From assembly GCA_964636885.1 (NCBI GenBank), contig CAZWVA010000001.1, positions 52,228 to 114,862 of the forward strand: a stretch of DNA of 62,635 nucleotides. Reading direction: 5' to 3'. The notes beneath the pieces were generated by a model, which worked only from the letters and a program-made list of their open reading frames with translations, searched no databases and was not told the DNA's origin. This stretch comes from an uncultured Spirochaetia bacterium. Lineage in GTDB: Bacteria > Desulfobacterota_D > UBA1144 > Nemesobacterales > CSP1-2. Positions 9,313 to 53,311 of this stretch are shown in pieces. How positions within the stretch are numbered: the first letter of the stretch is position 1; every line of letters starts with the position of its first letter. The position numbers and the translations under genes were made by a program.

Positions 9313-9395
9313 TTGACATAGCAGATGGCAGATGGTAATTTGCTAAGTAAGTAATTACTTACTATATTACATAACAGAGATAGGAAGAATGTCAA
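9313..9395. promoter_or_regulatory. Face-to-face sigma70 promoters (tolC / adaptor operon) with central 18-bp palindromic operator at 9346-9363
   Basis: Plus strand TTGACA(9313)-17-TAATTT; minus strand TTGACA(9395-9390); perfect palindrome AGTAAGTAATTACTTACT between them. Confidence 0.75.
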
Positions 9396-10759: not shown

Positions 10760-10773
10760 GGTTGGGTTGAGTC

Positions 10774-12099: not shown

Positions 12100-12138
12100 G
12101 TTCGGCATAATGGGGTTAATCTCAACCAGTTCCATTCA

Positions 12139-13474: not shown

Positions 13475-13528
13475 TTGACATCACGTTCAAAGTAGAGTAG
13501 TATAAAAGTAAGTAAGTGGTTACTTAAT
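13475..13528 (+). promoter_or_regulatory. sigma70 promoter and operator (13511-13528) of the tetR-RND operon
   Basis: TTGACA-17-TAGTAT followed by AGTAAGTGGTTACTTAAT (15/18 identical to the 9346 palindrome). Confidence 0.7.
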
Positions 13529-14152
13529 ATGGTGAAGATGTCGACTGAGAAGATAAAGGTAAACGCACGGGATAGGATACTAGAGACCGCTATCAGGCTC
13601 TTTTCTGAAAGGGGGTTTAACGGTACGACCACAAAGGAGATAGCGGAGGAGGCAGGCGTAAACGAGGCCCTCATATTCCGTTATTTCTCTACTAAGAGGG
13701 AACTCTACGGCGCGATTATAGAAAGAAAGATAGAGGAGGAACCGGGGATCGAGGTTCCGATTGAAACCTATAAGGAGACAAAAGACGACTGGCTCATTTT
13801 TAAATCCATAGCCCTCAGGATGTTCGATTGTGTGGAGAAGGATCCGACTTTCATGAGGCTCCTTTATTTTAGCGCCCTAGAGGGGCACGAGCTATCCGAT
13901 ATGTTTTTTGATACATATGTGGAGTACATAAACATGCTCCTTTCCGACTACATAGAGGGGCGTATATCCGAAGGGGCATTTAAGGGATTAAACCCACTTC
14001 TTGCGGCGCGCGCATTTATAGGGATGGTCGTAAATTACATAATAGTGCAAGAGCTCTTCGGTGAGAAGAAAAAGAAACGGGTTAATAAGGAAGAGGTAAC
14101 AGATACCTTTGTAGAGATCTTCCTTAATGGAATAAAAGAAAAGCAGCAGTAA
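13529..14152 (+). CDS. TetR/AcrR family transcriptional regulator
   Basis: N-terminal HTH: ILETAIRLFSERGFNGTTTKEIAEEAGVNEALIFRYF. Confidence 0.92.
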   Translation: MVKMSTEKIKVNARDRILETAIRLFSERGFNGTTTKEIAEEAGVNEALIFRYFSTKRELYGAIIERKIEEEPGIEVPIETYKETKDDWLIFKSIALRMFDCVEKDPTFMRLLYFSALEGHELSDMFFDTYVEYINMLLSDYIEGRISEGAFKGLNPLLAARAFIGMVVNYIIVQELFGEKKKKRVNKEEVTDTFVEIFLNGIKEKQQ

Positions 14153-15365: not shown

Positions 15366-15390
15366 ATATGTAAGGGAGAAGATATGTCCC

Positions 15391-18300
15391 ATGAATATCT
15401 CAGAACTCTTTATCCGCCGCTTCGTTTCAACTACCCTGATTATGTTTGGCATCCTCCTTTTCGGTGTTATGGGATACAGGCTTCTACCTGTAAGCGACCT
15501 TCCGAATGTTGACTTTCCTACCCTTCTAGTAACCGCCAGCCTCCCAGGGGCGAGTCCCGAAACCATGGCTTCATCCGTTGCCACTCCCCTGGAACGGCAG
15601 TTCTCCACCATAGAGGGGCTAAGCTCCATGACCTCTGTTAGCTCCCTGGGCTCCACCCAGATTACGCTCCAGTTTGACCTCGACCGTGATCTCGATGCCG
15701 CTGCTCAGGACGTTCAAACGGCCATCGTTCAAGCCACACCTTTTCTCCCCCAGGATATGCCACAGCCTCCTACATACAAGAAGGTAAACCCTGCCGACCA
15801 GCCGATTCTATACATCGGTGTTACATCCCGGACGCTTCCCCTTTGGGAGCTCAACGAGTATGCGGATACGGTGATAGGCCAGCGCATCTCTATGGTGAAG
15901 AACGTTGCCCAGGTTCAGATCTTCGGTCCACAGAAGTATGCGGTTCGCGTACAACTCGATCCCCACGCCCTTGCCAGCCGAGGGATCGGGATTAACGATG
16001 TGGAAAGTGCTCTAAGGAGCGCCAACGTAAATCTACCAACGGGTACCCTCTACGGTTCCAACAAGGCGTTTACCGTCTTAGCAACCGGACAGCTCTATAA
16101 GGCCGATGCATATCGACCCATTATCGTGGCCTACCGTGACGGTTCTCCTGTGCGTCTTGAAGAGCTAGGGCGGGTAATAGACAGCGTTGAGACCGATAAG
16201 GCCGCAGCCTGGTATGTGGATCGGGAAGGGAGCCAGCGTGCCATAGTGCTCGCCGTACAGCGCCAACCGGGGACAAATACGGTTGAGGTAGCGGATTCCG
16301 TAAAAGGGCTACTCACTAAACTAAAACCCTATATCCCGCCTTCGGTTGAACTGCACATACTCTATGACCGCTCTAAATTCATACGCGAGTCGATTCGAGA
16401 CGTCCAGTTCACTATGGTTTTAACCCTCGTCCTTGTTGTCATGGTGATATTTCTATTCCTGCGGAATACATCTGCTACGGTGATCCCTAGCCTGGCTCTG
16501 CCTTTATCCATCATAGGCACCTTTTCGGTCATGTATATACTCGACTACAGTATGGACAACCTCTCGCTCATGGCTCTAATACTGGCGATTGGGTTCGTGG
16601 TGGATGACGCCATTGTAATGCTCGAAAACATAGTCCGTCATATGGAGATGGGGAAAAAGCCCTTTCAATCGGCGCTTGATGGATCCAGGGAGATAAGTTT
16701 TACCATTCTCTCCATGACCCTTTCCTTGGCTGCGGTGTTTATTCCTGTGCTCTTTATGGGAGGTGTTATTGGAAGACTCTTTCGTGAGTTCTCAGTTACG
16801 ATCTGTGTTGCGATCCTAATCTCCGGCTTTGTCTCTCTAACCCTTACTCCTATGCTCTGCAGTCGATTCCTGCGCCCTCCTTCTGAGGAAAGACACGGTC
16901 GCTTCTATGCTGTCACTGAGCGTTTCTTCGACCGTATGCTCAAGACCTATGAGTGGAGCCTGAGATGGGTTCTAAACCATCGTCTGGCTACTATGGTTGT
17001 TTCCGGGGTCATACTTGTGGTTACCGGATACCTTTATGTTAGGATTCCCAAGGGGTTTATCCCGAATGAGGATAGGAGCATAATCTTTGCCATTACCGAG
17101 GCACAGCAGGGAACCTCCTTTGACAAGATGGTCGAACTTCAAAAGGCCTTGGCCGATATCGCTCGCAAGGACCCGAACATAGTGGAATTCTATTCGAGCG
17201 TTGGCACCTCGAGTATCGCTACGAGTTCCAACCAGGGTGTCATGTTCTTCCATTTGAAACCCCCCTCGGAGCGTAGTTTAAGCGTGGAGGAGGTAATAGA
17301 GGAACTGCGTCCCAAGCTAGCTACGGTTCCTGGTATACGTGTCTTCATGCAAAACCCTCCCACGATCCGTATCGGAGGGCAATTGACAAAGAGCCTGTAC
17401 CAGTTCACCTTGCAGGCGCCAGACACAAAGGAGCTCTATCATTACGCTCCGATATTAGAGGCCAAGATGCGTGCACTTCCCGAGCTCCAGGACGTGACAA
17501 GTGACTTACAGATCAAGAACCCGCAGGTAAATGTCGTGATTCATAGGGACAAGGCGTCTACATACGGGGTCACGGCAGAGCAGATCGAAAACGCTCTCTA
17601 TGGTGCCTACGGCGACCGATGGGTCTCGACTATATACGCGCCAAATAACCAGTATAAGGTCATTATGGAGCTAGAGCCGCAATACCAAATGGACCCTGAT
17701 GCCATGTCCAAACTGTATATAAACTCATCCAATCAGCACCTGGTTCCATTAGATGCCGTAGCAACGCTTACCGAGAGTCTTGGGCCACAGACGATTAACC
17801 ACCTTGGACAGTTTCCCGCAGTTACTATTTCATTTAACCTCAAACAGGGGATCTCTCTCGGTGAGGCCGTGACGAAGGTTAACAAACTTGCGCGTGAAAC
17901 CCTGCCCACAACCATAAGTACCAGCTTTCAGGGTGCGGCCCAGGAGTTTCAATCGTCACTAAAGGGTATGGGACTCCTCCTCCTCTTTGCCATTCTGGTT
18001 ATCTATATGGTGCTTGGAATCCTCTATGAGAGCTTTATCCATCCTCTAACCATTCTATCTGGACTCCCTTCTGCGGGATTCGGGGCTCTCATCACACTTC
18101 TTCTCTTTCGCGCCGAGCTTAACATATACGGCTTTGTGGGTTTAATCATGCTTATAGGAATCGTAAAGAAGAACGCCATAATGCAGATCGACTTCGCACT
18201 GGAGGCCCAGAGAAATGAGGGTAAGAGCCCACTCGATGCGATCTACCAGGGCTGTATCATCCGGTTTCGTCCCATAATGATGACGACCATGGCGGCCCTA

Positions 18301-18576
18301 TTCGGGGCCTTGCCAATCGCGATCGGCTTTGGAGCCGGAGGGGAAGGGCGCCGTCCACTCGGCCTTGCCGTGGTAGGTGGACTACTCTTTTCGCAACTAA
18401 TCACCCTTTATCTTACCCCGGTTGTCTATACGTATATGGATACTTTCCAAGAAAGGATCCAAAAACTCTTCTCTTCAAGGAGAAGAGCGGCAAGAAAGGT
18501 TACCTCCATCTCATTTGACGGGGCCTCCGAGGAACGTCCTCCGGGTGTATCGCCTCCCAGGGGAAGATCGAAGTGA
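15391..18576 (+). CDS. RND efflux permease (MdtB/MdtC-like, AcrB family); likely start ATG at 15391
   Basis: MNISELFIRR, GASPETMASSVATPLERQF, GFVVDDAIVMLENI, GIVKKNAIMQIDF, RFRPIMMTT. Confidence 0.92.
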   Translation: MNISELFIRRFVSTTLIMFGILLFGVMGYRLLPVSDLPNVDFPTLLVTASLPGASPETMASSVATPLERQFSTIEGLSSMTSVSSLGSTQITLQFDLDRDLDAAAQDVQTAIVQATPFLPQDMPQPPTYKKVNPADQPILYIGVTSRTLPLWELNEYADTVIGQRISMVKNVAQVQIFGPQKYAVRVQLDPHALASRGIGINDVESALRSANVNLPTGTLYGSNKAFTVLATGQLYKADAYRPIIVAYRDGSPVRLEELGRVIDSVETDKAAAWYVDREGSQRAIVLAVQRQPGTNTVEVADSVKGLLTKLKPYIPPSVELHILYDRSKFIRESIRDVQFTMVLTLVLVVMVIFLFLRNTSATVIPSLALPLSIIGTFSVMYILDYSMDNLSLMALILAIGFVVDDAIVMLENIVRHMEMGKKPFQSALDGSREISFTILSMTLSLAAVFIPVLFMGGVIGRLFREFSVTICVAILISGFVSLTLTPMLCSRFLRPPSEERHGRFYAVTERFFDRMLKTYEWSLRWVLNHRLATMVVSGVILVVTGYLYVRIPKGFIPNEDRSIIFAITEAQQGTSFDKMVELQKALADIARKDPNIVEFYSSVGTSSIATSSNQGVMFFHLKPPSERSLSVEEVIEELRPKLATVPGIRVFMQNPPTIRIGGQLTKSLYQFTLQAPDTKELYHYAPILEAKMRALPELQDVTSDLQIKNPQVNVVIHRDKASTYGVTAEQIENALYGAYGDRWVSTIYAPNNQYKVIMELEPQYQMDPDAMSKLYINSSNQHLVPLDAVATLTESLGPQTINHLGQFPAVTISFNLKQGISLGEAVTKVNKLARETLPTTISTSFQGAAQEFQSSLKGMGLLLLFAILVIYMVLGILYESFIHPLTILSGLPSAGFGALITLLLFRAELNIYGFVGLIMLIGIVKKNAIMQIDFALEAQRNEGKSPLDAIYQGCIIRFRPIMMTTMAALFGALPIAIGFGAGGEGRRPLGLAVVGGLLFSQLITLYLTPVVYTYMDTFQERIQKLFSSRRRAARKVTSISFDGASEERPPGVSPPRGRSK

Positions 18577-28244: not shown

Positions 28245-28260
28245 TGGCATTCTTCTTGCA
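28245..28260 (+). promoter_or_regulatory. sigma54 promoter of the CBS-cco-cba operon
   Basis: TGGCAT-TCTTC-TTGCA. Confidence 0.8.
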
Positions 28261-39479: not shown

Positions 39480-40440
39480 TTTATACACGGCTCTACCCAT
39501 AGCGTAACGTCTCGGAATCTCCTTTCGATTCAACGGATATAATTTTACGACACCTGGCTTTTTCCCCAACCCCTGGAAAAGGAGCGTTGACTTCATAACG
39601 ACCGGTGAAAGACACGGGGTTATCGAGGTCTTTTATCCCGAGGAGAAGGGGTTGGAGCTTGAGGTCATCTTTTAGTGGAAGAGGTAAGCCTTATCAACTC
39701 TCTATCGGAGATGGTCTCTTCCTTCCTCGATCGCAGGGTTATGGAGGATGTCCTTAAAGAGAACCTCGTTAGACTAACAAAAAGGAGGCCGTTACGAATC
39801 TATAATCAGCACGGTTACTCGTAGCGTCCATCAGTCTCTGGATCTTCAAGAGGTGCTTGAAAACGCCGTTAAAGCGATTAGCGAGAACGTGGATGGAGTG
39901 GAGAAGTCTCAATCTACCTGGTTGTTGAGAGAGAAGAGGGGGAAGCCGAGGTACGTTTATTGGCCCCGCCGGAAGGGAAGAGGGGTGGCAATAGGGAACA
40001 CCCAGGCACTGGAAGCGCTGAGAAGAAGCGAAGGGAGGTATAGCGACCTCGTTAACGAGGTAAACGGCGGCCTCTTTACGATTGACGATCTCCCAGTTGG
40101 ACGGGGAGGGCTTATACTCGTAATCGACGACGAGATCTCGGTTAGGGAGATTACGAGGGTAACGTTGGAAACATACGGGTATAGGGTAGTTACTGCAAGC
40201 GACGGGGCAGAGACAATAACGTTATATGCGAAAATAAAATAAGGGGAAGGTAAGGGCTGTCATACTCGATATATGGTGCCTATTATGGTGGACGGCTCCG
40301 TTTGCACCAAAGCGCTTAAGAGGATCGACCCTGGGGTAAATATCATAGCGGTAAGCGGGTTTAAGGAGAACGTTGGGTACGCACTGGTTACCGCTACAGA
40401 AGCGGACGCCTTTTTACAGACATACGATCGGCCGTTGTAA
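39480..40440 (+). pseudogene. Collapsed hybrid sensor kinase/response regulator remnant (GAF plus receiver fragments)
   Basis: Frameshifted pieces: TVTRSVHQSLDLQEVLENAV (GAF), LILVIDDEISVREITRVTLETYGYRVVTASDG and MVP..DG....ALKRIDPGVNIIAVSG (REC); no kinase core. Confidence 0.7.
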
Positions 40441-40459
40441 GATTTTCTTACATCTGACA
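40436..40459. promoter_or_regulatory. Upstream activator-like palindrome, site 2
   Basis: TGTAAGATTTTCTTACA followed by TCTGACA. Confidence 0.75.
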
Positions 40460-40501
40460 TCCCTCTCTTATACAACCACATAGAATGTAAAAGGATTTCA
40501 T

Positions 40502-40517
40502 CGGCACCTTTCTTGCA
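40502..40517 (+). promoter_or_regulatory. sigma54 promoter of the second CBS gene
   Basis: CGGCAC-CTTTC-TTGCA. Confidence 0.75.
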
Positions 40518-40570
40518 CCTTCCCCTTGCGGAAAGGGCGGGGTTTAGGCTATGAAGGGAGGTGAAAGGAC

Positions 40571-41211: not shown

Positions 41212-42021
41212 TCAAATATCCTTTCTCTCGAAGATAAGGATAGCCATAAAGAGTGGGATAAAAAGCCAAGCGAGAAGAACCACCAGAGAAATTACCATGC
41301 CCATGGGGCTTCCAAATGTCCTACCCAACACCGCTCCCGCAGGCCCTACGAGTGCCGCGCTTCCAAGCGACATGATAAAAGTCGTTCTTACCAAATCGGC
41401 GGGGTTTAGAAAGAGAAGGGCTATGATTATACCTCCAAAGGCGAGGGTTAGGCCTACCAGGATAAAATCGTATATGATTACAAACCAGAACCAGAGCATG
41501 AAACTTATCCCAATAGACCTTGCCTTCTCTCCTAAGGCTATTGAGACGAGGGAGGCGATTGAGAGGAAGATGAGGGAGAGTAAAACGGAGAGAAGAACAA
41601 GGAACAGGAAGTGTGAGCTCTCCTCGTAGCCTATGTTTAAACCGAGGATAAAACCTGCCGAGATAAAACCAAGAAGAAGGGTCGCCGTAACGGCCGTTCC
41701 GAGGCCGAGATACTTTCCCAACACAGCCTCTTTTCGACTAATGGGTTGAATTAAGAGCAGCTCCCACGACTCCCTTGCCCCGGTGAAGCTATTTGCCCCC
41801 ATTATAAGCGCCATAAGGGGAACGAGGATTAGGACTAGGTTTAGCAGGCTTACGGCGGGTTTCAAGAACGTGTTACCCCCGCCTCCTATGATTCCAGAAT
41901 AGGACACGGTTGAGTCGAGAAGGATAAAAAGAAGGGCAAAAAAGAAAAACCACCTGTTTCTTATGGCGTCCAGAAACTCCCTTTTGGCGATTACGTAAAC
42001 GATTCTAATATCGGTATCCAT
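41212..42021 (-). CDS. nosY: NosY ABC permease
   Basis: IAKREFLDAIRNRW, WELLLIQPISR....GKYLG, LNPADLVR; in nos cluster. Confidence 0.9.
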   Translation of the reverse strand: MDTDIRIVYVIAKREFLDAIRNRWFFFFALLFILLDSTVSYSGIIGGGGNTFLKPAVSLLNLVLILVPLMALIMGANSFTGARESWELLLIQPISRKEAVLGKYLGLGTAVTATLLLGFISAGFILGLNIGYEESSHFLFLVLLSVLLSLIFLSIASLVSIALGEKARSIGISFMLWFWFVIIYDFILVGLTLAFGGIIIALLFLNPADLVRTTFIMSLGSAALVGPAGAVLGRTFGSPMGMVISLVVLLAWLFIPLFMAILIFERKDI

Positions 42022-42460
42022 GCCTTTCCTTCCAGTCCATCTTAAGAAGGGATTCGAGACGCATGGCCTTGCCTCCGGTTTTATCCGCCGTTTCTTTTGC
42101 CTTGATCGGGTCCTTAAACGCTATGATCCCGTATCCCATGGGCGTGTGGATCTCAGGGGAGATAACGAAGTGGGCTTCCTCTCCCTTTATCCACGTTGCG
42201 CCACCAAAATCCATTACCCAGAAGCGGGTTTTCTCGGGGCTAAGATTATTGGCTTGGGCGTAGGCAAACATGCACCCTATGTCATCGAATTTATGGGCTT
42301 TTCCCTTATCTATGATCTCCGCGGAATAACGAAAGTCACTTATAATCATTCGACAGTTTTCACACATGTCTATTCCCCTATTTATGGGAACGGGGGAGTC
42401 ATTTGATCGACAACCCGCTATAAGTAACAGGGAAAAAAGAGGGATCGCTATCCTATAAAT
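42005..42460 (-). CDS. nosL: NosL copper-chaperone lipoprotein; probable ATT start at 42460
   Basis: C..C.M.I, FDDIGC, HTPMGYG motifs; the frame extends upstream to (I)YRIAIPLFSLLLIAG-C lipobox with no ATG/GTG/TTG. Confidence 0.88.
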   Translation of the reverse strand: MYRIAIPLFSLLLIAGCRSNDSPVPINRGIDMCENCRMIISDFRYSAEIIDKGKAHKFDDIGCMFAYAQANNLSPEKTRFWVMDFGGATWIKGEEAHFVISPEIHTPMGYGIIAFKDPIKAKETADKTGGKAMRLESLLKMDWKERHGYRY

Positions 42461-43361
42461 CGGAATCTCCCTCCGTGTATTTGATGAATATCTCTTCGAG
42501 TGAAGGGTCTTCTGTCCAGAAATCCAATATGTTGAACCCGTTTTCCAACAGGGCTTTAATCACCCTTGTCTTATCCCTAGGTGATATAAGACACCTTAGG
42601 TTCCTTCCTCTAATCTCCGCGTCCTTTGCTCCGAGATCCTCGACGAGTTTAATCCCCATTGGGCTCGGATTCTCGAGTACCACCTCTAGAATCGAGCCCA
42701 TCTTAAGCCTGGTCCTTAGTCCTTCCAGTGTATCGAGTGCAACGATCCTTCCCCGAACCAGTATGGCTATCCTCTCGGCGAGCTCCTCTATGTAGCTCAG
42801 TATATGGGATGAGAGGAGGATGGTTTTCCCCCTTCTCTTTTCTTCCCTTATGAGCCTTTTAAAGGCGATCCTCCCCTCCGGGTCCAGGCTGATCGTGGGC
42901 TCGTCCAGTATGAGAATAGGAGGGTCGGAGATAATCGCCTGTGCAAGGGCCAGCCTCTGGATCATTCCACCCGAGAGCGCTCCCACCTTCTTATTCCTCT
43001 GTTCCAGGATCCCCACGGCTCTAAGTACGTCTTCCGGTCTTTTGTTATTCGTGCCCCTTAGCTCGCTATAGAATTCTATGACCTCAAACACGCTGAGGTT
43101 TTCATGAAAGGAGATCCTCTGAGGAACGTATCCTATCCTCTTTTTTATCTCCTTCTGGTTCTTGCTTACCTCTATATTATCAACGAGTATCCTCCCTTCG
43201 GTAGGATGTATAAGGCCTAGAACGGCATTTAGAAGCGTGGTCTTCCCCGCCCCGTTTGGACCGACTATGGCAAAGGTTTCGCCTCTTTGCACCTCAAGAG
43301 AGACCCCTTGGAGCGCCCTTGTGTTTCTATAATCCTTTACGAGGTTCTCAATCCTTATCAT
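42453..43361 (-). CDS. nosF: NosF ABC ATPase
   Basis: GPNGAGKT, LSGGMIQRL, LILDEP; between nosD and nosL. Confidence 0.9.
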   Translation of the reverse strand: MIRIENLVKDYRNTRALQGVSLEVQRGETFAIVGPNGAGKTTLLNAVLGLIHPTEGRILVDNIEVSKNQKEIKKRIGYVPQRISFHENLSVFEVIEFYSELRGTNNKRPEDVLRAVGILEQRNKKVGALSGGMIQRLALAQAIISDPPILILDEPTISLDPEGRIAFKRLIREEKRRGKTILLSSHILSYIEELAERIAILVRGRIVALDTLEGLRTRLKMGSILEVVLENPSPMGIKLVEDLGAKDAEIRGRNLRCLISPRDKTRVIKALLENGFNILDFWTEDPSLEEIFIKYTEGDSDL

Positions 43362-44658
43362 TTTTCGTCCCTTCGTTAGTCCAAACGGGGTTCATTAGAG
43401 GATAAGGGTCTTCGATTTCAACGGGGTTTAGTACGGGAATAATCCTCTCTGCAAACTCAAGTGCCTTCATGCCGGGGCTTTCCATAAAGACCGTGAGGTC
43501 GGGGTAGCGCTTCATCAGATATGAAAGGAGCTTCACCGGTTTGTAGGGGATGTCTCCGATTCCGTCTCCATCTAGATCGTATCCGTTATACCCCTTGTAG
43601 TCGCTCCAGTAGTTTCCGGTTGAGTCCTTAAAAAACCGGTTTGTCGTGCGGTCTGTATCGGTCATCACCTGATACGTGTTGTCTAGAAAGTCGTTCCCAT
43701 ATATCGTATTATCGTTGGAGCTGGAAAACAGGTCAATTGCCCAACCGTTTTGTAAAAACACGTTTCCGGTAAAAACGTTCCTATTGGCATCGTCCATAAA
43801 GACCCCCACCGTATTATTGGATATTATGTTTCCTCTGGCAAGTGTGTCGTTTAGGGATTTAAGAAGCATACCGAACCCGTTTGGACCGAGGTTGTTTTTA
43901 AAGGCGTTTTTTCTAAGAACGATGTTTTTAGAATACATAATCGCGCTTCCGGTTCCGTTTCTCTCAAATGTGTTTTCCTCGAATGTGTTGTCATCCGAGT
44001 ACATATAGTGTAGACCGTATCTCACGTTTCTCTCACAGTGATTCCCTCTTATGGAGTTGCCGGGTGAGAACTCTACGTATATCCCATCCCTGTGCTTTAC
44101 TATGTGGTTTCCCTCGATCGTGTTATTTGGCGACTTCCAGAGGTGAATCCCGTTTCCGTTTTCCTCTTCTGTCGTATAATCCGCTCTTCCATAAGACGTG
44201 TTATTCCTGATCGTGTTGCCGGAAGATGAGTAGAGGTATACGCCTATTATAACGTCCTCGAGTTTGTTCTCTTCGATTATGACCCCTCTTGAATTTGCTA
44301 TCTTTATTCCGCTTTCGTCTTTTAGAAGATCGCCCCCACTTCTTCTTATAGTAAAGCCTTTAATCAAAACCCCGTCAGCCTCTATTCTTATGACGTCGCC
44401 CTTATATCCGCCGTCGATTACGGGTTGATTTTCCCCGATGAGAAACACCTTTTTATCTAGGACTATATTCTCCCTGTACACTCCTTCCTTAACGACTATC
44501 GTGTCGCCTTCGGCTGAGTTCCGGAGTGCTTCTGTGATTGAGGAATAGGCCGATCCTTTTCCTACGGTGATCTCCCCGGCAATTGATTCTGCCCGGAGAG
44601 CGATAAGGGAGATTAAGCCCGTAATTACTATAATCGCTTCTGCCTTGATTCGAGCCAT
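43348..44658 (-). CDS. nosD: Nitrous oxide reductase maturation protein
   Basis: Beta-helix repeats, GNGIHLW, RYGLHYMYSDDN, GNYWSDY.GYDLDGDGIGDIPY.P. Confidence 0.93.
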   Translation of the reverse strand: MARIKAEAIIVITGLISLIALRAESIAGEITVGKGSAYSSITEALRNSAEGDTIVVKEGVYRENIVLDKKVFLIGENQPVIDGGYKGDVIRIEADGVLIKGFTIRRSGGDLLKDESGIKIANSRGVIIEENKLEDVIIGVYLYSSSGNTIRNNTSYGRADYTTEEENGNGIHLWKSPNNTIEGNHIVKHRDGIYVEFSPGNSIRGNHCERNVRYGLHYMYSDDNTFEENTFERNGTGSAIMYSKNIVLRKNAFKNNLGPNGFGMLLKSLNDTLARGNIISNNTVGVFMDDANRNVFTGNVFLQNGWAIDLFSSSNDNTIYGNDFLDNTYQVMTDTDRTTNRFFKDSTGNYWSDYKGYNGYDLDGDGIGDIPYKPVKLLSYLMKRYPDLTVFMESPGMKALEFAERIIPVLNPVEIEDPYPLMNPVWTNEGTKNDKD

Positions 44659-45242
44659 ACTATTATCGGTCCGAGTATAGCCGCAAAACCCATGAGTATT
44701 GCACCGGAGCCCGGAAGGCTTATAACCTTAAAGTTTGCGATCTGTTTTACCCCGATGATGTTCGGTGTAAAAGGATCCATTTTTATCGCGGCTTGTGGGT
44801 TGAGGTTGTGGCCATACTCATAGAGCCATCTGTAGAAGTCCCCTAGCATGAAGACCCCAAACAGGATAAATAGGATCCATCCTATAGTGGCGAAATGCCA
44901 TCTTCCTACGATTGCAGAGAGGAGAGCAAGTACACTAAAGGCGATGATCGTAAAGGGAAGCCACTTAAACTCCTTGAATTCGTCGGGTCTTATCTCGTGC
45001 ATCCCTATATAGTGGTTAAGGGCGTTAATTATCTTGGGGGTATCGTTTGTTAGGTCGAGTTCCGGGTTATACTCCGTCAATTTGTTTGCGTATATGTACA
45101 TCCTTACACCTTTCGGATACTGTGGGGCTACAAGCGTTACCGTCCATATTGGAAGGACTATGGCGGGTATAATAGAAAGAGCCGCAATAACTATAAGAAT
45201 CCGAGCCTGCTTTGATAAGCGACCTGAAAGGACGTTGACCAT
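44628..45242 (-). CDS. nosB: NosB-like membrane protein of clade II nos clusters
   Basis: APQYPKG..M.I, INALNHYIGM, WLYEYGHNL...A.IK. Confidence 0.8.
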   Translation of the reverse strand: MVNVLSGRLSKQARILIVIAALSIIPAIVLPIWTVTLVAPQYPKGVRMYIYANKLTEYNPELDLTNDTPKIINALNHYIGMHEIRPDEFKEFKWLPFTIIAFSVLALLSAIVGRWHFATIGWILFILFGVFMLGDFYRWLYEYGHNLNPQAAIKMDPFTPNIIGVKQIANFKVISLPGSGAILMGFAAILGPIIVWLESRQKRL

Positions 45243-45320: not shown

Positions 45321-47153
45321 TTACTTGGAGCCTTTAGAGGCTACTTCGATATAGCCCTGCATCTCTTGGTGGAGGGCCGAACAGAAGTTTGTGCAGTAAA
45401 AGGGATAGATACCCGGCTTCTCTGCGATCCACTTAACCGTTTTCGTTTCCCCTGGATCTACCTGCATATCTATATTTGAGAAGTTGATCCCAAATCCATG
45501 CGTTATGTCGTTATCCTGTTCGATGTTTGTAACGTGGAAGTACACGGTGTCTCCCTCTTCAACCTTGATGATATCGGGTGTGAAGTGGCTTCTTATGGCG
45601 ATCATGTAAACATCCACCTTATTCCCGTTTCTTTCAATGCGTGCCTGCTCTGGGCTCTTTATCATATTTGGGTCCTTGTTCTCCTCCAGCGGGTATATCT
45701 TCTGGGGGTTTACGAGTCTTGCGTTGATTATCTGACCGTAGTGTGGCTCAACCTGGGTAGGAAAGTCAAGAAGCATTTCCATCTTCTTGCCCGTTATATC
45801 GATGAGCTGTGCGCTCTCCGGGTAGGAGGGGCCAACAGGAAGGTATCTGTCCTTTGCCAGTTTATTCAAGGCGAGCATGTACTTACCCTCTGGGTGCACC
45901 GTATCTCCATGGGCGACGGCGAGGTGCCCTATGGCATAGTAGACCGGGATCTTATCCACGACTTCCCATGTCCCAAGCTTCCACTTGGCAATCGCAGAAT
46001 CTACAAAAAGGGATGTGTATGCGTATCCTTTGTCGTCAAACTGTGTATGAAGTGGACCAAGTCCTACAGGAACCTCGGCGACCCTAACGGATTCGTATTT
46101 GATTATCGGTATCCCCATGGCATCTCCGTCGAAGTCACCTTTCTTTATGGCCTCCTGCATCTTCTCAAAGCTGTGTACGACTGCTACAGCGGCGAGTTTC
46201 CCTCCACCGACTATATACTTCCCGTCAGGGGAGACATCTGCGCCGTGCGGGCTTTTCGGGGTGGGAAGAAGATACACTATACCCTTTACCTCTTGCGGGT
46301 CAATGACCTTGACTCCGTTAATCTCCTTGTATTTCCCCTCTTTAATCGCCTCTTCCGCGGCCTTCCAGTTTACGGCGGCAATAAAGTCTCTGTCTTTCTG
46401 GGAGGCCCCGACCTCTAGTTCCTTATACGCCATCTCGGTGTTGTAAGAGCTAAAGAACGCCCAGCCGTAGCTTACCTGCTTCCCGGCATCGGCCAGGTCG
46501 TAATCGAAGGGCGGCATCAGGATCTGAAAGGCGTTTTCCATGTGCCCTGTATTCTTATCCACACTTACAAAGGCGATTACACCCTTAAAGTTCTCCTTGT
46601 AGCTTTCTATTGAAACATCGCGGTTCGGTACGGGAACCGAAAACCTGGTTGCACCGACCACGTATTCCGTGTTTGGTGTGACAAATGGGCTTGCGTGGTT
46701 TCCAGACACATTGGGAACTTGTATTATCTCCTCTGTGGTGAATGTCTTAAGATTTATGCGGGCTATTCGTGCGCTGTTATTGTCGTTTATAAAAAGCCAT
46801 CTCCCGTCGTAATCTCCGTTTGTCTCCGAGAGGGCGGGGTGATGGGCGTCGCCCCAGGTGTAGCCACCCAGTATGCTTTTACTCTCTTCATCGATGCCCC
46901 ATCCTATGGCTGGATCGGGTGTAAAAACTGGTATCACCCTTAGTAGCCTTCCAGACGGAAGTCCATAGACCGCTATCTGACCGGAATGGCCACCTGAGAG
47001 AAAGGCATAGTAGCTATCGTACTTTCCCGGAGGGACATAGACCTTTTCCGCCGGGCTCTCCTTTCCTTTACAGGCAAAGAGAAGCCCGATAAAGACAAAA
47101 AGGACGGAGAGACATAAAAAGCTCGCTCTGTTTCTAAGACTCATAGATCTCAT
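45321..47153 (-). CDS. nosZ: Sec-dependent (clade II) nitrous oxide reductase with lipoprotein-type signal
   Basis: WGDAHH, GNH, KSPHG, GLGPLH, EPH CuZ ligands; CTNFCSALHQEM CuA; no twin-Arg, LFA-C lipobox. Confidence 0.95.
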   Translation of the reverse strand: MRSMSLRNRASFLCLSVLFVFIGLLFACKGKESPAEKVYVPPGKYDSYYAFLSGGHSGQIAVYGLPSGRLLRVIPVFTPDPAIGWGIDEESKSILGGYTWGDAHHPALSETNGDYDGRWLFINDNNSARIARINLKTFTTEEIIQVPNVSGNHASPFVTPNTEYVVGATRFSVPVPNRDVSIESYKENFKGVIAFVSVDKNTGHMENAFQILMPPFDYDLADAGKQVSYGWAFFSSYNTEMAYKELEVGASQKDRDFIAAVNWKAAEEAIKEGKYKEINGVKVIDPQEVKGIVYLLPTPKSPHGADVSPDGKYIVGGGKLAAVAVVHSFEKMQEAIKKGDFDGDAMGIPIIKYESVRVAEVPVGLGPLHTQFDDKGYAYTSLFVDSAIAKWKLGTWEVVDKIPVYYAIGHLAVAHGDTVHPEGKYMLALNKLAKDRYLPVGPSYPESAQLIDITGKKMEMLLDFPTQVEPHYGQIINARLVNPQKIYPLEENKDPNMIKSPEQARIERNGNKVDVYMIAIRSHFTPDIIKVEEGDTVYFHVTNIEQDNDITHGFGINFSNIDMQVDPGETKTVKWIAEKPGIYPFYCTNFCSALHQEMQGYIEVASKGSK

Positions 47154-47181: not shown

Positions 47182-47655
47182 CTAGTCTTTTTCTTTATGT
47201 TGTTCGGTTTCCCCTTTTGCTTGGGAATCCTTCATCCTAAAATACATGATGATTGCCTGGGCTTCTTCAGGAGTGACGTTCTGATTGGGCATCCTTACCA
47301 TATATGTTGCGAGTAGCTCTCTGGCTATAGGATCCTTTTCGAGCATGACCTCTGGGTGAAGGATCTGATTTGCAATCCAATCGAGATTCCGTCTCTCCGT
47401 AACGCCGGCAAGATCAGGGCCTGTGCGTTTTCCCTGCCCGATTGTATGACATGCCGAACAGCCCTTGGTCTGAAATAGCTCTTCCCCTTTCTCTGCGAGT
47501 TCATGGTCGATTGGAGGGGGTGCCTTCGCCTCTTCCTCATGGGTTATCTCTTGCTTTGCCTCACCGACTTCTGTTCCCTCTTCTTCCTTGCCCTTACAGG
47601 ATATCAGAATTACTAGGAGAACCGCAACGGCTAACGTTAGGCCCTTTCTTCTCAA
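47182..47655 (-). CDS. Monoheme cytochrome c lipoprotein upstream of nosZ
   Basis: LIS-C lipobox, CSACH, GPDLAGVT, MPNQN. Confidence 0.88.
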   Translation of the reverse strand: MRRKGLTLAVAVLLVILISCKGKEEEGTEVGEAKQEITHEEEAKAPPPIDHELAEKGEELFQTKGCSACHTIGQGKRTGPDLAGVTERRNLDWIANQILHPEVMLEKDPIARELLATYMVRMPNQNVTPEEAQAIIMYFRMKDSQAKGETEQHKEKD

Positions 47656-47697: not shown

Positions 47698-47713
47698 TGC
47701 AATCCTTATGCCA
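47698..47713 (-). promoter_or_regulatory. sigma54 promoter of the nos operon
   Basis: TGGCAT-AAGGA-TTGCA. Confidence 0.8.
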
Positions 47714-47757: not shown

Positions 47758-47781
47758 TGTAAGGTGTCGGATAATCTGACA
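47758..47781. promoter_or_regulatory. Upstream activator-like palindrome, site 3
   Basis: TGTAAGG then TGTCGGATAATCTGACA. Confidence 0.75.
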
Positions 47782-47788
47782 CTTATAT

Positions 47789-47802
47789 AGTGAGCGCTCA
47801 CT
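47789..47802. promoter_or_regulatory. TetR-type operator next to the nos enhancer
   Basis: Perfect palindrome AGTGAGCGCTCACT; related copy at 48395-48414. Confidence 0.65.
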
Positions 47803-47808
47803 CATCGG

Positions 47809-48414
47809 TTATGCCTCTAAAACCCTAATCGCTGAGTTTGCAACTTCGGCTATGGTTCTACCATAGTCAAGGCCAATGAGACCGCTATTAAAGAAGAGAA
47901 TCGTTCTTGTTATCATTCCTATTACCATCGCCGCTCCCAGGTTCTCATCTATCTTTCTGAAATCTCCTTTTTCGATTCCAAGGCGTATTACTTCCACAAA
48001 GATATCTTTGGGTTTCGGCTTCTCTTCTGGAATCCTTCCCAGCTCTGTAAGGTGTGCTTCCATTATGTATGAGTATGCCTTAGGCTGGTTCTTTGCAAAA
48101 TCAAAAAAGTTTTGAATTAGAACCCTTAGCTTCTCCTTTGGATCGGTGTAGTTGCTTGTGTTTTCTACTAGTTTTTCTCTAAACGTGTCCATATTGCTGA
48201 TAAAAAGCTTAAGGGCAAGGTCATCTTTGCTTTTAAAGTGTTTGTATATGGTTCCCTCTGCTATACCGGCTTTTCTTGCTATCTCCCTCGTTGTAGTGCC
48301 TTTTATCCCCTTCTTTATGAACAGGCTAAGGGCGATATTAAGTATCCTATTCTTTGAATCCAAGAGGCTTCTCTTCTTTCTAATGGCTCTTCTGGCAAGT
48401 GAGTGATTACCCAT
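47809..48414 (-). CDS. TetR/AcrR family regulator (alternative TTG start at 48363)
   Basis: ILNIALSLFIKKGIKGTTTREIARKAGIAEGTIYKHFKSKDDL HTH. Confidence 0.9.
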   Translation of the reverse strand: MGNHSLARRAIRKKRSLLDSKNRILNIALSLFIKKGIKGTTTREIARKAGIAEGTIYKHFKSKDDLALKLFISNMDTFREKLVENTSNYTDPKEKLRVLIQNFFDFAKNQPKAYSYIMEAHLTELGRIPEEKPKPKDIFVEVIRLGIEKGDFRKIDENLGAAMVIGMITRTILFFNSGLIGLDYGRTIAEVANSAIRVLEA

Positions 48415-48432
48415 TCTTAATCGTTGACGAAT

Positions 48433-48448
48433 CGCAACCAGTGTGCCA
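48433..48448 (-). promoter_or_regulatory. sigma54 promoter of the TetR gene
   Basis: TGGCAC-ACTGG-TTGCG. Confidence 0.75.
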
Positions 48449-48491: not shown

Positions 48492-48515
48492 TGTAAGATG
48501 TCAGGGAATCAGACG
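48492..48515. promoter_or_regulatory. Upstream activator-like palindrome, site 4 (degenerate)
   Basis: TGTAAGA then TGTCAGGGAATCAGACG. Confidence 0.6.
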
Positions 48516-48605: not shown

Positions 48606-48888
48606 ATGAAAAAGGGCGTTATAGAGATCTCATTCATTCTAATATTGTCCGTTGTGTTTCTCGGAGTCTTCTAGGTTGCTAAACCCGGAAATCCAGAGAC
48701 CCCTAGGGATGAAAAAAGCCCTGCTGCTCCCGTTGCAAATGTCACCATTGTCCTATACGGACCGGTATTGCTGAGGGACGCCTCGTATTTATCGGTGAGG
48801 GGGGAGGCATTGATGGAAAGGTAAATCCGGATTTAAAGGTAAAGCTCGGGGATGTGGTTCAAGTGATCCTCATCAATGGTGAGGGATG
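48606..48888 (+). pseudogene. nirK: 5' remnant of a copper nitrite reductase with N-terminal cupredoxin domain
   Basis: RBS and ATG at 48606, signal peptide, TAG at 48672, 2-nt frameshift near 48755, then RTGIAEGRLVFIGEGGGIDGKVNPDLKVKLGDVVQVILINGEG, cut off at ~48888. Confidence 0.7.
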
Positions 48889-49982
48889 TTTGGGTTTTTT
48901 ATTGGCTTAGCCTCTCTCCTGCTCAAATATACGGTATTTCCGAGAAAGAGAAGAATGGCAATGGCGTTAAGTAGACCTCCCCACTTGCGTCCTAATGGCC
49001 ACTCTAGTAGATCCCCCGTTATCCGAAGGATCAAAGAGATGTGGAGTAGAGCGAGGTGTGCATAAAAGGGTAGATGAAGGGTTAAAAATCTCGGTAAACC
49101 CAGAACTGCCGGAAATATAACGGGTGCGTGTGCGAATATCATCGAAAATACAAACCCGATAAAGATCGAATGTAATATGGCATCGTAGTAAAACCCCGAT
49201 GTCATGCCTCCAAGGAAAACCTCCAACAGCCCACCTAATCCGAGCCACACGTAACCTATGATTAGGCTCAGGGCTATAAATCGGCTTAACCCTTCTTGGT
49301 TCACGGTACGTCGCGCGATATCAAAGCGTAAGAGCCATAGGGCCAAGGCGACCATTCCTATACCCGTAACCTGCACTCCAGCGCTAAAGGCTCTAGTTAC
49401 CAGGATGACACCGAGTATAAAGAGAGAGGCGGCAAGGATAAAAGCCGCTTTACCCCTATTGGATATTTGAAGCATACGGCTGATCTCCAGTCTCTCTCCG
49501 GAGATGGTTAATACCAAGAATCCGATCCACCATATAGCGACCTTATAGAAAGGGAACCCCAAGAGCCAAAGCCCGTTTCCTATGAGCCAGAAGGAGGCCC
49601 CGATCGTGATGACAACCGAGTAAAGGGTAAGGTGGTTATAAAAGATAACCGCTAGAAGGAATACCAAGCCGGCGCTACTTAGGGTCATAAGGGTTATTCC
49701 AAATGGGTCGGGTGTACCCGCTACTAATGCCAGAGCGCCCACTCCACTTAGAAGGGGAACCGCATACGCCCATCTGAGGTTTGAGGCCACCGCCCGCTCA
49801 AGACCTATAAGGGTTCCTAAGAAGCCAGAGACCATAAGGGGGCCGTGGAAAGAAGGTAAGCTTAGCCTGAATAAAGGCAACTCCAATCCGAGGCGAAAAA
49901 GCCCCATCCAGAGCCCGATGAGAAGGGCAAAGCCTCCGAGGACCATTATGAGTAGGCGAAACCCTATTTTCTTCTCCTCCAT
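48873..49982 (-). CDS. NnrS-like polytopic membrane protein
   Basis: HGPLMVSGFLGTLIGLERA, LTISGERLE, YDAILHSIFIGFVFSMIFAHAP. Confidence 0.65.
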   Translation of the reverse strand: MEEKKIGFRLLIMVLGGFALLIGLWMGLFRLGLELPLFRLSLPSFHGPLMVSGFLGTLIGLERAVASNLRWAYAVPLLSGVGALALVAGTPDPFGITLMTLSSAGLVFLLAVIFYNHLTLYSVVITIGASFWLIGNGLWLLGFPFYKVAIWWIGFLVLTISGERLEISRMLQISNRGKAAFILAASLFILGVILVTRAFSAGVQVTGIGMVALALWLLRFDIARRTVNQEGLSRFIALSLIIGYVWLGLGGLLEVFLGGMTSGFYYDAILHSIFIGFVFSMIFAHAPVIFPAVLGLPRFLTLHLPFYAHLALLHISLILRITGDLLEWPLGRKWGGLLNAIAILLFLGNTVYLSRREAKPIKNPNIPHH

Positions 49983-50329
49983 ACGGGTCTTGTGTCGTTG
50001 GGTTCTCTCGATTTAATGAGAAGAAGAAGCATTAGGAGAGGGGTCTTGGCCTGTACGGCGTGTCTAAGTCCGGGAGACATGTTCACCCATGCCCCGGCCT
50101 GGGCCTCTATGGAATCCTCTCCCAGTTTAAGCCGTGCTTCCCCTTTGATTATATGGATGGTGGCCGGCATTAAGGAGGTGTGCTCTGAGAGTTCCTGTCC
50201 CTCATCAAAACCGAAGAGTATGGCCTTTAGATACTCATCGTTATGAAGGGTACGGCTTATAATGCCGTTTTTAGGGATCTCTCCAATCTCTTTGGATAGA
50301 TCTCCAATATAGTTATAGTCATTACCCAT
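49964..50329 (-). CDS. Cupin domain protein
   Basis: FGFDEGQELSEHT...A..HIIKGEA, LRHAVQAK. Confidence 0.85.
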   Translation of the reverse strand: MGNDYNYIGDLSKEIGEIPKNGIISRTLHNDEYLKAILFGFDEGQELSEHTSLMPATIHIIKGEARLKLGEDSIEAQAGAWVNMSPGLRHAVQAKTPLLMLLLLIKSREPNDTRPVWRRRK

Positions 50330-50348
50330 AGTCTACCTCCATAGATCT

Positions 50349-50852
50349 TTAACTAAGCATTACGGCGCAGATGAGTACCATGATCCCTAAGAGGGCGTTT
50401 ATCCTTGCAAGCCATGATACGTATCTTCGGTTCCTCTCTATTCTCAAATTGGAATCGGGGTTTGATGTGCCACTACCATGAAGGGCGATTAACCTGGGAC
50501 CCAGGACGAAATCGTGGATAGCGCTTAAGACAAGCATAATGGAGACGAGGATCGCCTTTACTGTAAGCGTCCTTCCAAAATAGGAAGAGAAGAGCGATCC
50601 ACTTGAGATCATCTCCACGGTGACCCCGCGGTTTAGTGCGTTAAGCACACCGGTTACGAGCAATATGGGTACGGCTATCCAACTCACAGTCCGGAATCTC
50701 CTTGCGATGTTGGAGAGGATCTCTATGCGCTGATGGGGCTCCAGGTTTCTCAAAACCGGGACGATAACGAGAGCTATAAAGAACATTCCCCCCAGCCATA
50801 TGATAGCAGAAAGGATGTGTATGAGGACAATCGAGTTATGAAAAAGGTTCAT
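50349..50852 (-). CDS. CopD/DUF4149-like membrane protein (alternative start 50897)
   Basis: HILSAIIWLGGMFF..V.P, HDFVLGP. Confidence 0.75.
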   Translation of the reverse strand: MNLFHNSIVLIHILSAIIWLGGMFFIALVIVPVLRNLEPHQRIEILSNIARRFRTVSWIAVPILLVTGVLNALNRGVTVEMISSGSLFSSYFGRTLTVKAILVSIMLVLSAIHDFVLGPRLIALHGSGTSNPDSNLRIERNRRYVSWLARINALLGIMVLICAVMLS

Positions 50853-50884
50853 GGTGATTCTCGCTCTTAGGTTCTTTCGGCTTT

Positions 50885-51250
50885 TTAAGAAGACCATCTA
50901 TAAGTAACTACGGTAGCGTTATTGTGCTTCTCATCTCTTGCGCTGTAAACCAGTGTGAGATTTCCTCTTTTAGCCATATCAACGAGATTCAAAAGAGCGT
51001 TTCTTTTCCCTTCTTTTCTAAGCTCCTCTATGTACCTCTTTTGGAACTCCTCCCATCGAGAGGGGTCGTGAGAAAACCACCTTCTAAGCTCTCTACTAGG
51101 GGCGACCTCCTTCAACCAAAGGTCGATCTTAACCTCCTCCTTCTTTAAACCCCTCGGCCACAACCCATCGATAAGGACACGTATCCTGTCCTCTTTCTCC
51201 GCTTTATCGTAAACCCTCTTTGTTTTAACCATTTGCGGTTTCTCCCTCAA
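50885..51250 (-). CDS. DUF488 (YeaO-like) protein
   Basis: KRVY, RVLIDGLWPRG..KE, WLKEVAPS.ELRRWF.HDP, LTLVYSARDEKHNNA. Confidence 0.88.
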   Translation of the reverse strand: MREKPQMVKTKRVYDKAEKEDRIRVLIDGLWPRGLKKEEVKIDLWLKEVAPSRELRRWFSHDPSRWEEFQKRYIEELRKEGKRNALLNLVDMAKRGNLTLVYSARDEKHNNATVVTYRWSS

Positions 51251-51265
51251 TCGAGTAGGGTTCGG

Positions 51266-51631
51266 TTACCGTCCTCTCTTCTCCTTTATATAAAGCCTTA
51301 GATTCAGAACATCCGTTAGGACGGATAAGGTCACCGCTATGGTGGTGACTATTACATGTGTCTTAGTATCCCCGCCTTTTCCTTCTATGTTCATAAGGCC
51401 ACTCCAAAAGGCACCGACTAGGAATAGAACCGAGACGAAGTTCATTTGAGATGCCGATGCGTTTAATACATGGCATAAAACCGAAACGGCAATGGCAGTG
51501 ATTCCAACCCCTATGTGTGAATCGCTAGGGAGTAATCCTAGGTAGACCGTGGCTCCAGAAAAGAGACCGCCCAAGAGAGTTATAATCGATATTAAACTCA
51601 AGACCGATAACCACAATCCTTTGTTGCCCAT
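51266..51631 (-). CDS. Hypothetical membrane protein
   Basis: Four short hydrophobic segments with His residues; no family recognised. Confidence 0.5.
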   Translation of the reverse strand: MGNKGLWLSVLSLISIITLLGGLFSGATVYLGLLPSDSHIGVGITAIAVSVLCHVLNASASQMNFVSVLFLVGAFWSGLMNIEGKGGDTKTHVIVTTIAVTLSVLTDVLNLRLYIKEKRGR

Positions 51632-51670
51632 CGTTAATGGCTTTTTGGAGTACCCGATTTTGTACTTTTC

Positions 51671-52099
51671 CTACGTTTGTTTTCCCACGGGTCGCACCCG
51701 TGACCACATATTATACACAAAGAGAAACCCCGCTACTGCCTGCGACAGGGCACCTAAGACGACCAACAAATCAAATACCCTTGAATCGGTGTAAGAAGTG
51801 ATAACCTCACAGATAAAGCGGGTTGTTGTTCCTAATGTGAGAAACCAATAGATCCCTTCCGCCAGTCTGGGGCTGTAATCGGTTTCTTCCCTTGGGCGGG
51901 GGAACATCCAGATAGATACACCCATTATGAGGGACATCAAAAAACCAAAGAGCAGTATATGGACATGTGCGGTGATAAACTGGGGATGGGGCCAGCTACC
52001 CAGGATGTGTTTTCTCACGATCATATATAGGCCAAGGAGCAGGCCAACCATGAAGAAGATGAAACCCGTCTTTATGTACCGCCTTGCTAGTTCGGGCAT
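51671..52099 (-). CDS. Small heme-copper-oxidase-subunit-I-like / NnrS-related membrane protein
   Basis: AHVHILLFGF....IMGV..WMFPR, four TMs. Confidence 0.65.
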   Translation of the reverse strand: MPELARRYIKTGFIFFMVGLLLGLYMIVRKHILGSWPHPQFITAHVHILLFGFLMSLIMGVSIWMFPRPREETDYSPRLAEGIYWFLTLGTTTRFICEVITSYTDSRVFDLLVVLGALSQAVAGFLFVYNMWSRVRPVGKQT

Positions 52100-53295: not shown

Positions 53296-53311
53296 TGGCA
53301 TAAACCTTGCA
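53296..53311 (+). promoter_or_regulatory. sigma54 promoter of the siroheme reductase
   Basis: TGGCAT-AAACC-TTGCA. Confidence 0.8.

Follow-up and report, generated by a model that had tools for sequence, protein, structure and literature searches.

The gene tetR, which encodes a TetR/AcrR-family regulator, immediately precedes a nitrous oxide (N2O) reductase operon (nos) in the 62,635-nucleotide stretch of contig CAZWVA010000001.1 analyzed here (the window), and comparison with related loci makes it very likely that this nos-adjacent TetR controls N2O reduction. We consider it probable that the protein acts as a ligand-released repressor, which would regulate its own gene and also gate the enhancer-dependent transcription of nos. 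On the minus strand of the window, tetR is followed by a 153-bp intergenic region and then by cytC, nosZ, nosB, nosD, nosF, nosL, and nosY, the last of which ends at 41212 (Table 1). With a Sec-type NosZ, nosB, a c-type cytochrome, and nosDFYL, the cluster is by its gene content of the clade II type. In its fold, and probably in the way it acts, the TetR protein is ordinary; the novelty lies in its predicted regulon, composed of clade II nos and nitric oxide (NO)-stress genes, and in its siting at a sigma54 enhancer.

A preliminary description of this DNA had assigned the gene to the TetR family, and the assignment is borne out by both the domain profile and the structural model. The N-terminal TetR_N helix-turn-helix (PF00440) was matched at residues 24-68 with E = 4.1e-17 and 62.1 bits against a cut-off of 24. 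The AlphaFold2 model, with a mean predicted local distance difference test score (pLDDT) of 92.5, has nine helices in the canonical TetR fold, and its top Foldseek matches in the PDB were all TetR regulators, with template modeling (TM) scores of 0.6-0.76. The orthologue group is sharply bounded, with approximately 78 clusters at 46-97% identity followed by a fall to 35%, and those of its members that carry a name derive from metagenome-assembled genomes of Thermodesulfobacteriota, Deltaproteobacteria, and Candidatus Dadabacteria. Across the nos-TetR family, the helix-turn-helix GIKxTTTREIAxKAGIAEGTIYKHFKSK is near-invariant, which is consistent with a conserved operator. The ligand domain has three residues that hardly vary in the family alignment, His121, Glu124, and Lys134.

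The genomic and metagenomic loci of relatives were fetched by a search for contigs encoding the TetR; a profile scan of metagenome contigs had missed the closest relatives. The preliminary description had named unconserved tetR-nosZ linkage as a refutation of its proposal, and the linkage is kept: tetR lies next to or inside nos clusters in approximately 19 of the 24 non-redundant loci at no less than 48% identity, with variable outer flanking genes, and in the rest it has NnrS, hemerythrin, RIC/ScdA, NirK-like, or NarG-like genes for neighbors. Moreover, cytC stands ahead of nosZ in every related locus compared. The order tetR-cytC-nosZ of the window, with unrelated genes further upstream, recurs in L003, L081, L085, L087, L094, and L161-L167, and in L004-L008, L084, L091, L170, and L171, tetR closes the operon in the order nosZ-…-nosL-tetR. 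In L001 and L172, tetR heads a series of genes for a hemerythrin, NnrS/DUF1858, a ferredoxin, RIC/ScdA, a second hemerythrin, a NirK-like oxidase, and CopD, which runs into cytC-nosZ. Four loci without nos (L082, L083, L168, L002) have tetR beside NnrS, hemerythrin, or RIC genes, or beside a NarG-like gene with a Tat signal. In KSB1, Calditrichota, and Bacteroidota, the genes of more distant homologues (full-length, 35-46% identity) are followed instead by a cassette that encodes a ferredoxin, an EamA transporter, and metallo-beta-lactamase-fold proteins.

Two sites near the promoters of nos and tetR had been singled out in the preliminary description. One is the perfect 14-bp palindrome AGTGAGCGCTCACT at 47789-47802, which begins 6 nt past the tetR stop codon (TAA, 47811-47809, minus strand) and is separated by a gap of only 7 bp from the inverted repeat TGTCGGATAATCTGACA (47765-47781) of the nos enhancer. 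The other is GCAAGTGAGTGATTACCCAT (48395-48414), just downstream of the tetR sigma54 promoter, which is identical to TATAGTGAGCGCTCACTCAT at 13 of 20 positions and overlaps the tetR ATG (48414-48412). The coordinates and arithmetic of both are correct. Judged on the window alone, neither site stands out: seven perfect 14-bp palindromes were seen against 3.7 +/- 2.3 expected, an approximately 2-fold enrichment, and a window search at up to 3 mismatches returned no second copy of the 14-mer. Since these within-window statistics do not support the second site, comparative footprinting was used instead.

A weight matrix was built from 26 tetR-upstream sites of other genomes, with the window left out. 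With this matrix, the predicted operator cores at the two promoters, O_tetR and O_nos (scores in Table 1), are both among the five best matches of the 62.6 kb, and in shuffled sequence the maximum was 10.6 +/- 3.0 bits, with 0.1 matches per shuffle reaching the score of O_nos. O_tetR is placed at approximately +10 to +23 from the predicted tetR transcription start, over the start codon. The core of O_nos lies 9 bp from the nos enhancer, or 7 bp if counted from the 14-bp palindrome. The proposal that the palindrome is an operator is supported insofar as it overlaps the conserved core, an overlap that stems from the 4-nt periodicity of GAGTGAG, but the conserved register is 2 bp off. The nos-promoter site of L087 and L094, ATGTGAGT-GGGT-ACTCACAT, fixes the register and thus places the window core at 47791-47804; a 20-bp register centered on the palindrome, with 7-0-7 arms, was rejected since these two loci and all autoregulatory sites fix a 5-4-5 arrangement. 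The perfect 14-bp palindrome itself is not conserved, with CA rather than CG at its center in L161 and L001.

The common core T[G/A]AGT-N4-ACT[C/T]A was found at the own promoters of TetR orthologues with 35-97% identity from Thermodesulfobacteriota/Dadabacteria, KSB1, Calditrichota, and Bacteroidota. The palindrome lies directly downstream of the tetR promoter in approximately 40 loci, which is most of the orthologous loci scanned, at sigma70-type (TTGACA…TATAAT) and sigma54-type promoters alike. Examples are AGTGAGTGATTACTCACT in L001, TGAGTAATCACTCA in L161, GTAAGTAAACACTTAC in L012, and TGAGTGAGTACTCA in L087, and the position orthologous to O_tetR in L161 and L081 holds a perfect TGAGT-AATC-ACTCA. 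In L082, L003, L001, L085, and L172, the operator abuts the -10 element or the transcription start of a sigma70 promoter. With at most one mismatch allowed, 474 kb of related loci contained 88 motif matches, 47 of which fall in the 130-nt segments upstream of tetR (1.5% of the sequence) and 11 more upstream of cytC-nosZ. Eleven non-redundant relatives have the motif at the nos promoter as well, next to the conserved enhancer. Besides the window, loci with this arrangement are L161/162, L163, L166/167, L001, L085, L087, L088, L094, L170, and L171. The nos operon of L170 and L171 ends with tetR, 7.5 kb downstream, and in L001 it is copD, not tetR, that lies upstream of the nos promoter, so the element is a part of the nos promoter rather than of the tetR 3' end. 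No operator was found in the fetched stretches of L004-L008, L084, and L091, where tetR follows nosL and which exclude the nos promoter. The comparison supports the view that both window sites belong to one conserved operator family that tracks the nos-adjacent TetR across many genomes. As for the operator conservation that the preliminary description wished to see in relatives, the core is kept at the tetR and nos promoters, and the exact palindrome is not.

The promoters of nos and tetR both have -24 GG and -12 GC elements with canonical spacing, and TGGCA-N6-TTGC was matched seven times in the window against 0.24 expected. Repeats of the TGTC-N9-GACA type (five matches in the window against 0.29 expected) stand at four sigma54 promoters, at 28180, 47765, 48499, and 58396. 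The same enhancer and sigma54 promoter are thus present at both tetR and nos, as would follow from the earlier suggestion that one activator's elements serve the two. The enhancer-to-promoter distance is fixed at 66-68 nt in nine loci, and UAS_nos is invariant in the alignment of the relatives' nos promoters. The operator is located on the far side of the enhancer from the nos promoter, with center-to-center distances of 22.5-26.5 or 44.5 bp, two classes approximately two helical turns apart. No enhancer-binding protein domain (AAA+ Sigma54_activat) was found in the window open reading frames (ORFs) scanned, a set that took in the majority of ORFs with 150 aa or more together with several below that length, and a broken receiver-domain ORF at 39853-40242 was the sole related feature. 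The bacterial enhancer-binding protein (bEBP) that serves as activator is probably encoded elsewhere in the genome, outside the window.

We hypothesize that the 201-aa TetR is a dedicated regulator of N-oxide respiration, which would bind the T[G/A]AGT-N4-ACT[C/T]A palindromes recovered by phylogenetic footprinting as a dimer. At 48400-48413, it would repress its own gene from a site inside the predicted open-complex footprint, the usual position for negative autoregulation, and at 47791-47804 it would hinder the assembly or productive looping of the enhancer-binding activator. The nos operon would then be transcribed only if the activator, presumably encoded outside the window, is active and the ligand has released the TetR. 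The same enhancer would drive tetR too in the window and the relatives nearest to it, and feed-forward wiring with negative feedback would result. Other lineages are probably wired more simply, with the operator at the start of a sigma70-driven tetR-cytC operon, and in further lineages a single operator at the nos promoter would drive an operon that ends with tetR. The incoherent feed-forward loop put forward in the preliminary description therefore finds its wiring in the window, L161, L163, L166, L081, and L087, but it is not general among relatives: the tetR promoter is sigma70-type in L001, L003, L082, L085, and L172, a separate nos promoter is absent from L164 and L165, and tetR closes the nos operon in L170 and L171.

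A repressing sign is supported by the promoter arrangement of four loci. In L082 and L164, the operator-covered tetR promoter has a cytochrome c gene directly behind it, with the nos genes next in L164; in L002 the operator lies between enhancer and promoter, and in L003 a half-site stands just past the -12 element. The geometry at nos fits anti-activation, in which the TetR would block the activator, and it fits co-activation too. Several observations weigh against the gating of nos by a repressor of this kind. The operator is distal to the enhancer, which is not the classical position for occlusion, and at the 44.5-bp spacing of L085, L087, L088, and L094 the distance is too great for one activator dimer to be kept off by simple steric hindrance. 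L003, L081, and L172 have a degenerate nos-promoter operator or none, and the arms in L171 are 8 bp apart instead of 4. The O_tetR of the window has one mismatch and is partly inside coding sequence. Furthermore, TAAGT-N4-ACTTA sites near a second TetR gene of the window take the highest, third, and fifth matrix scores, and cross-recognition between the nos TetR and the sites of the second TetR is possible.

The distal position of the operator, upstream of the enhancer and neither between enhancer and promoter nor over the promoter, would equally suit a TetR that still represses its own gene but at nos assists the enhancer-binding protein, in the manner of a co-activator or an architectural partner. 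The two helically phased spacing classes suggest face-specific contact rather than occlusion, and there is a precedent in the TetR-type LuxR and HapR of Vibrio, which activate beside LuxO sites at sigma54-dependent qrr promoters in quorum sensing. We nevertheless regard co-activation as unlikely: all tetR promoters have the site where it would repress, the operators of L082, L164, and L002 described above cover or precede the promoters of cytochrome c, nos, and NarG-like genes, the match to the LuxR/HapR model NF040929 reached 24.5 bits against a cut-off of 350, and most characterized TetR-family proteins are repressors. The assignment of the palindromes to this particular TetR can also be questioned, since the putative operators of the second TetR (13529-14152), TAAGTAATTACTTA at 9348 (26.9 bits) and TAAGTGGTTACTTA at 13513 (15.9 bits), have the same layout; the palindromes might be bound by this or some other protein, with the nos-adjacent TetR targeting something else. 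Such an exchange of roles appears highly improbable, because the motif co-occurs with nos-adjacent TetR orthologues at their promoters in dozens of genomes, and the distant orthologues are related over their full length to the nos TetR rather than to the second TetR. The two window TetRs are alike only in the helix-turn-helix (43% identity over 49 aa), and the second-TetR sites have TAAGT/ACTTA arms, whereas the nos and tetR sites of the clade have TGAGT/ACTCA. That the TGAGT-type sites belong to the nos TetR is, by these comparisons, well supported.

Chance would be the simplest account of all, with the palindrome a random feature or the terminator of tetR and the 13/20 site a coincidence. 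The weak enrichment of perfect 14-bp palindromes in the window, the start of this one 6 nt past the tetR stop codon, and the failure to recover the second site at up to 3 mismatches would all agree with it. On the other hand, the element is kept in nos promoters without an upstream tetR (L001, L170, L171), the matrix scores exceed the shuffled null, and the relatives' proteins are 48-92% identical, so mis-assembled copies of one sequence are unlikely. We give this account hardly any credence, and in our view the comparative data already refute it. An intrinsic terminator was rejected since no T-run follows the palindrome (ATATAAG does) and a terminator scan made no call, and an RNA element was rejected with a fold z-score of +0.30 against shuffles and no Rfam match.

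The second TetR is a 207-aa protein with TetR_N and TetR_C_7 domains, and its gene has a sigma70-like promoter with the palindrome GTAAGTAAGTGGTTACTTA (13510-13528) just before the start. The 16-bp perfect palindrome GTAAGTAATTACTTAC (9347-9362) has an outer-membrane efflux gene (7699-9216, minus strand) on one side and HlyD/MacB/MFS genes (9500-13428) on the other, and further HlyD and AcrB genes follow the second TetR at 14193-18576. By its gene content, this region is probably an efflux regulon, whose operators share their half-site layout with those of the nos TetR.

The neighborhoods of the orthologues, with NnrS, RIC/ScdA, hemerythrin, NirK-like, NarG-like, and nos genes, point to an N-oxide or nitrosative-stress signal. 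The closest solved structures are acyl-CoA-binding TetRs, namely Bacillus FadR (3whb/3whc), AibR (5k7z), FasR (6o6n), and Thermus PfmR (3vpr), which were matched with E of approximately 1e-13 over residues 22-174, TM scores of approximately 0.65-0.75, and approximately 22% identity. The best NCBIfam match is likewise Bacillus FadR (NF053878), at 66.9 bits, which is below its cut-off of 200. No fatty-acid (fad) genes occur near tetR, whose neighbors are nos, NnrS, hemerythrin, and RIC genes, and acyl-CoA as the ligand is a weak lead. A more speculative idea, to which we assign a low probability, is that the TetR family here forms a new class of nitrosative or N-oxide sensor, with a cofactor bound via His121, Glu124, and Lys134. 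It would be the master repressor in Dadabacteria/Thermodesulfobacteriota, in the role that NsrR, NnrR, or DNR has elsewhere, and, superimposed on a sigma54 enhancer, would subject N2O reduction to two independent signals. Its regulon would comprise nosZ, NnrS/DUF1858, RIC/ScdA, hemerythrins, the NirK-like copper oxidase, and the Tat-exported NarG-like reductase. Haem may be one possible cofactor at the three residues, by analogy with HrtR, which is a haem-sensing TetR.

Table 1. Positions of the nos genes and of the predicted regulatory elements in the window.
Feature	Position	Strand	Evidence and remarks
tetR, 201-aa TetR/AcrR-family regulator	47809..48414	-	PF00440 TetR_N, E = 4e-17
cytC, monohaem c-type cytochrome, opening gene of the nos operon	47182..47655	-	PF00034
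nosZ, Sec-dependent (clade II) nitrous oxide reductase	45321..47153	-	TIGR04246, 951.5 bits against a cut-off of 625; PF18764
nosB	44628-45242	-	Position and homologues in related nos clusters; 204-aa membrane ORF
nosD	43348-44658	-	Pfam NosD
nosF	42453-43361	-	Pfam ABC_tran
nosL	42005-42367	-	Pfam NosL
nosY	41212-42021	-	Pfam ABC2_membrane_2
Sigma54-type promoter of cytC-nosZ	47713 to 47699, TGGCATAAGGATTGC; also listed as 47698..47713, TGGCATAAGGATTGCA	-	TGGCA-N6-TTGC match; kept in relatives
Sigma54-type promoter of tetR	48448 to 48434, TGGCACACTGGTTGC	-	Kept in L161, L163, L164, L166, L081, L087
UAS_nos, enhancer-like inverted repeat	47765..47781		TGTCAGATTATCCGACA (minus strand), then CCTTACA; starts 68 nt upstream of the nos promoter start
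UAS_tetR, enhancer-like repeat	48499..48515		TGTCAGGGAATCAGACG (plus strand), then TCTTACA on the minus strand; promoter distance equal to that at nos; kept in close relatives
O_nos, predicted operator core	47791..47804		Minus strand reads TGAGT-GAGC-GCTCA, one arm mismatch; weight matrix 15.6 bits
O_tetR, predicted autoregulatory operator core	48400..48413		Minus strand reads TGGGT-AATC-ACTCA; weight matrix 20.6 bits

The start of tetR has some features of its own. The ATG (48412-48423 region) is just approximately 8-10 nt from the predicted sigma54 transcription start and is without a Shine-Dalgarno sequence, and the overlapping operator sequence largely determines what its first five codons encode (MGNHS, or MSNHS in relatives). 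An alternative TTG start at 48363, which would place O_tetR in the 5' untranslated region, was rejected since neither L161 nor L163 keeps the TTG, and since all close relatives have an open frame from the ATG, with indels that are multiples of three. In L002 ('Bacterium HR37'), within 660-790 of the locus, the TetR operator GAGTGAACGCTCACT lies between an enhancer-like repeat and the sigma54 promoter of the gene for a NarG-like molybdoenzyme with a Tat signal (RRSFLK), and the TetR regulon of this organism may, from this arrangement, extend to nitrate reduction.

Five more sigma54-type promoters were seen in the window, at 28245, 53296, 56294, 58320 (minus strand), and 58524, two of them with the same enhancer-like repeat (28180, 58396). 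The promoter at 28245 precedes a Cu-ATPase/cbb3-oxidase cluster and that at 53296 a nitrite/sulfite-reductase-like gene; radical-SAM genes (56294, 58320, 58524) and a PNPOx-like gene are also among those behind the five. The TetR operator was found at none of these five promoters. The sigma54 promoters and the enhancer repeat define what is, by these sequence elements, one putative regulon in the window. The match at 53296-53310 overlaps the program-listed TTG start (53307) of the 752-aa NIR_SIR ORF, so the true start codon must be further downstream. Downstream of nosY, the CBS-domain gene has beside it, at 39853-40570 (plus strand), a response-regulator receiver domain that a frameshift and an in-frame stop have split (…LILVIDDEISVREITRV…YAKIK and stop), and its fragment ORF at 39853-40242 is too short to be the absent enhancer-binding protein.

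Upstream of tetR, between its promoter region and the gene for a 369-aa membrane protein, fragments of a signal-peptide-bearing cupredoxin-like gene occur at 48606-48890 (plus strand). They read MKKGVIEISFILILSVVFLGVF followed by a stop, and …KVKLGDVVQVILINGEG in another frame; interrupted by the stop codon and frameshifts, they are likely a pseudogene or an assembly error. The block at 48873-52099 (minus strand) encodes a COX1-like 142-aa protein, a 121-aa membrane protein, DUF488, CopD, a cupin, and the 369-aa membrane protein. It is seen again beside the TetR orthologues of L002, L083, L164, and L172, interleaved there with NnrS/DUF1858, hemerythrin, RIC/ScdA, and NirK-like oxidase genes, and from this recurrence is taken to be a conserved N-oxide/copper gene neighborhood.

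Clade II nosZ dominates many soils and sediments. No biological sink for the greenhouse gas N2O is known other than NosZ, and little is known about the switching on of clade II nosZ genes. The TetR described here offers a testable regulator for a Dadabacteria/Thermodesulfobacteriota group known here from metagenome-assembled genomes alone: the protein is small and expected to be easy to purify, the operator TGAGT-N4-ACTCA is defined, and so is the architecture of operator, enhancer, and then sigma54 promoter. The ligand, if identified, would show what signal in the cell permits this group to reduce N2O. Moreover, the TetR-operator pair could serve as a biosensor part, and the arrangement would represent a natural case of a TetR-type protein at a sigma54 enhancer, which is useful for understanding anti-activation. 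For the regulation of clade II nosZ, the single paper retrieved points to Crp/Fnr-type control (PMC11539149). Our full-text literature searches found no report of a TetR-family regulator of nos or nnrS, in line with the earlier statement that no established TetR control of nos was known of; one paper retrieved (PMC4794192) was irrelevant, its 'TetR' matches being words such as 'tetrathionate'.

In comparison with known systems, the protein resembles TetR, QacR, and AcrR in its N-terminal TetR_N helix-turn-helix and all-helical ligand-binding domain, and in a palindromic operator of approximately 14-20 bp at its own promoter and at the adjacent target operon, with release by a ligand presumed here. 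Unlike in those systems, the predicted target is a clade II N2O-reductase operon together with N-oxide and NO-stress genes rather than an efflux pump or a catabolic pathway, both window promoters are sigma54-dependent, and the target operator stands beside the enhancer and not over the promoter. The FadR/YsiA-type TetRs are the nearest by the sequence and fold of solved structures, but the protein falls below their equivalog cut-off and has no fatty-acid gene neighborhood. With LuxR and HapR, it shares the TetR fold, a site next to a sigma54 enhancer, and a place within a feedback loop, whereas those proteins activate, in quorum sensing, and their homology to it is no closer than family level. 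The candidate targets (nosZ, NnrS, RIC/ScdA-type hemerythrins, nir, and nar), marked as a regulon by a shared palindrome, are those of NosR/NirI, NnrR, DNR, NssR, NsrR, and NorR. However, the known N-oxide regulators belong to the Crp/Fnr (NnrR, DNR, NssR), Rrf2 (NsrR), or bEBP (NorR) families, and the protein found here is a member of the TetR family.

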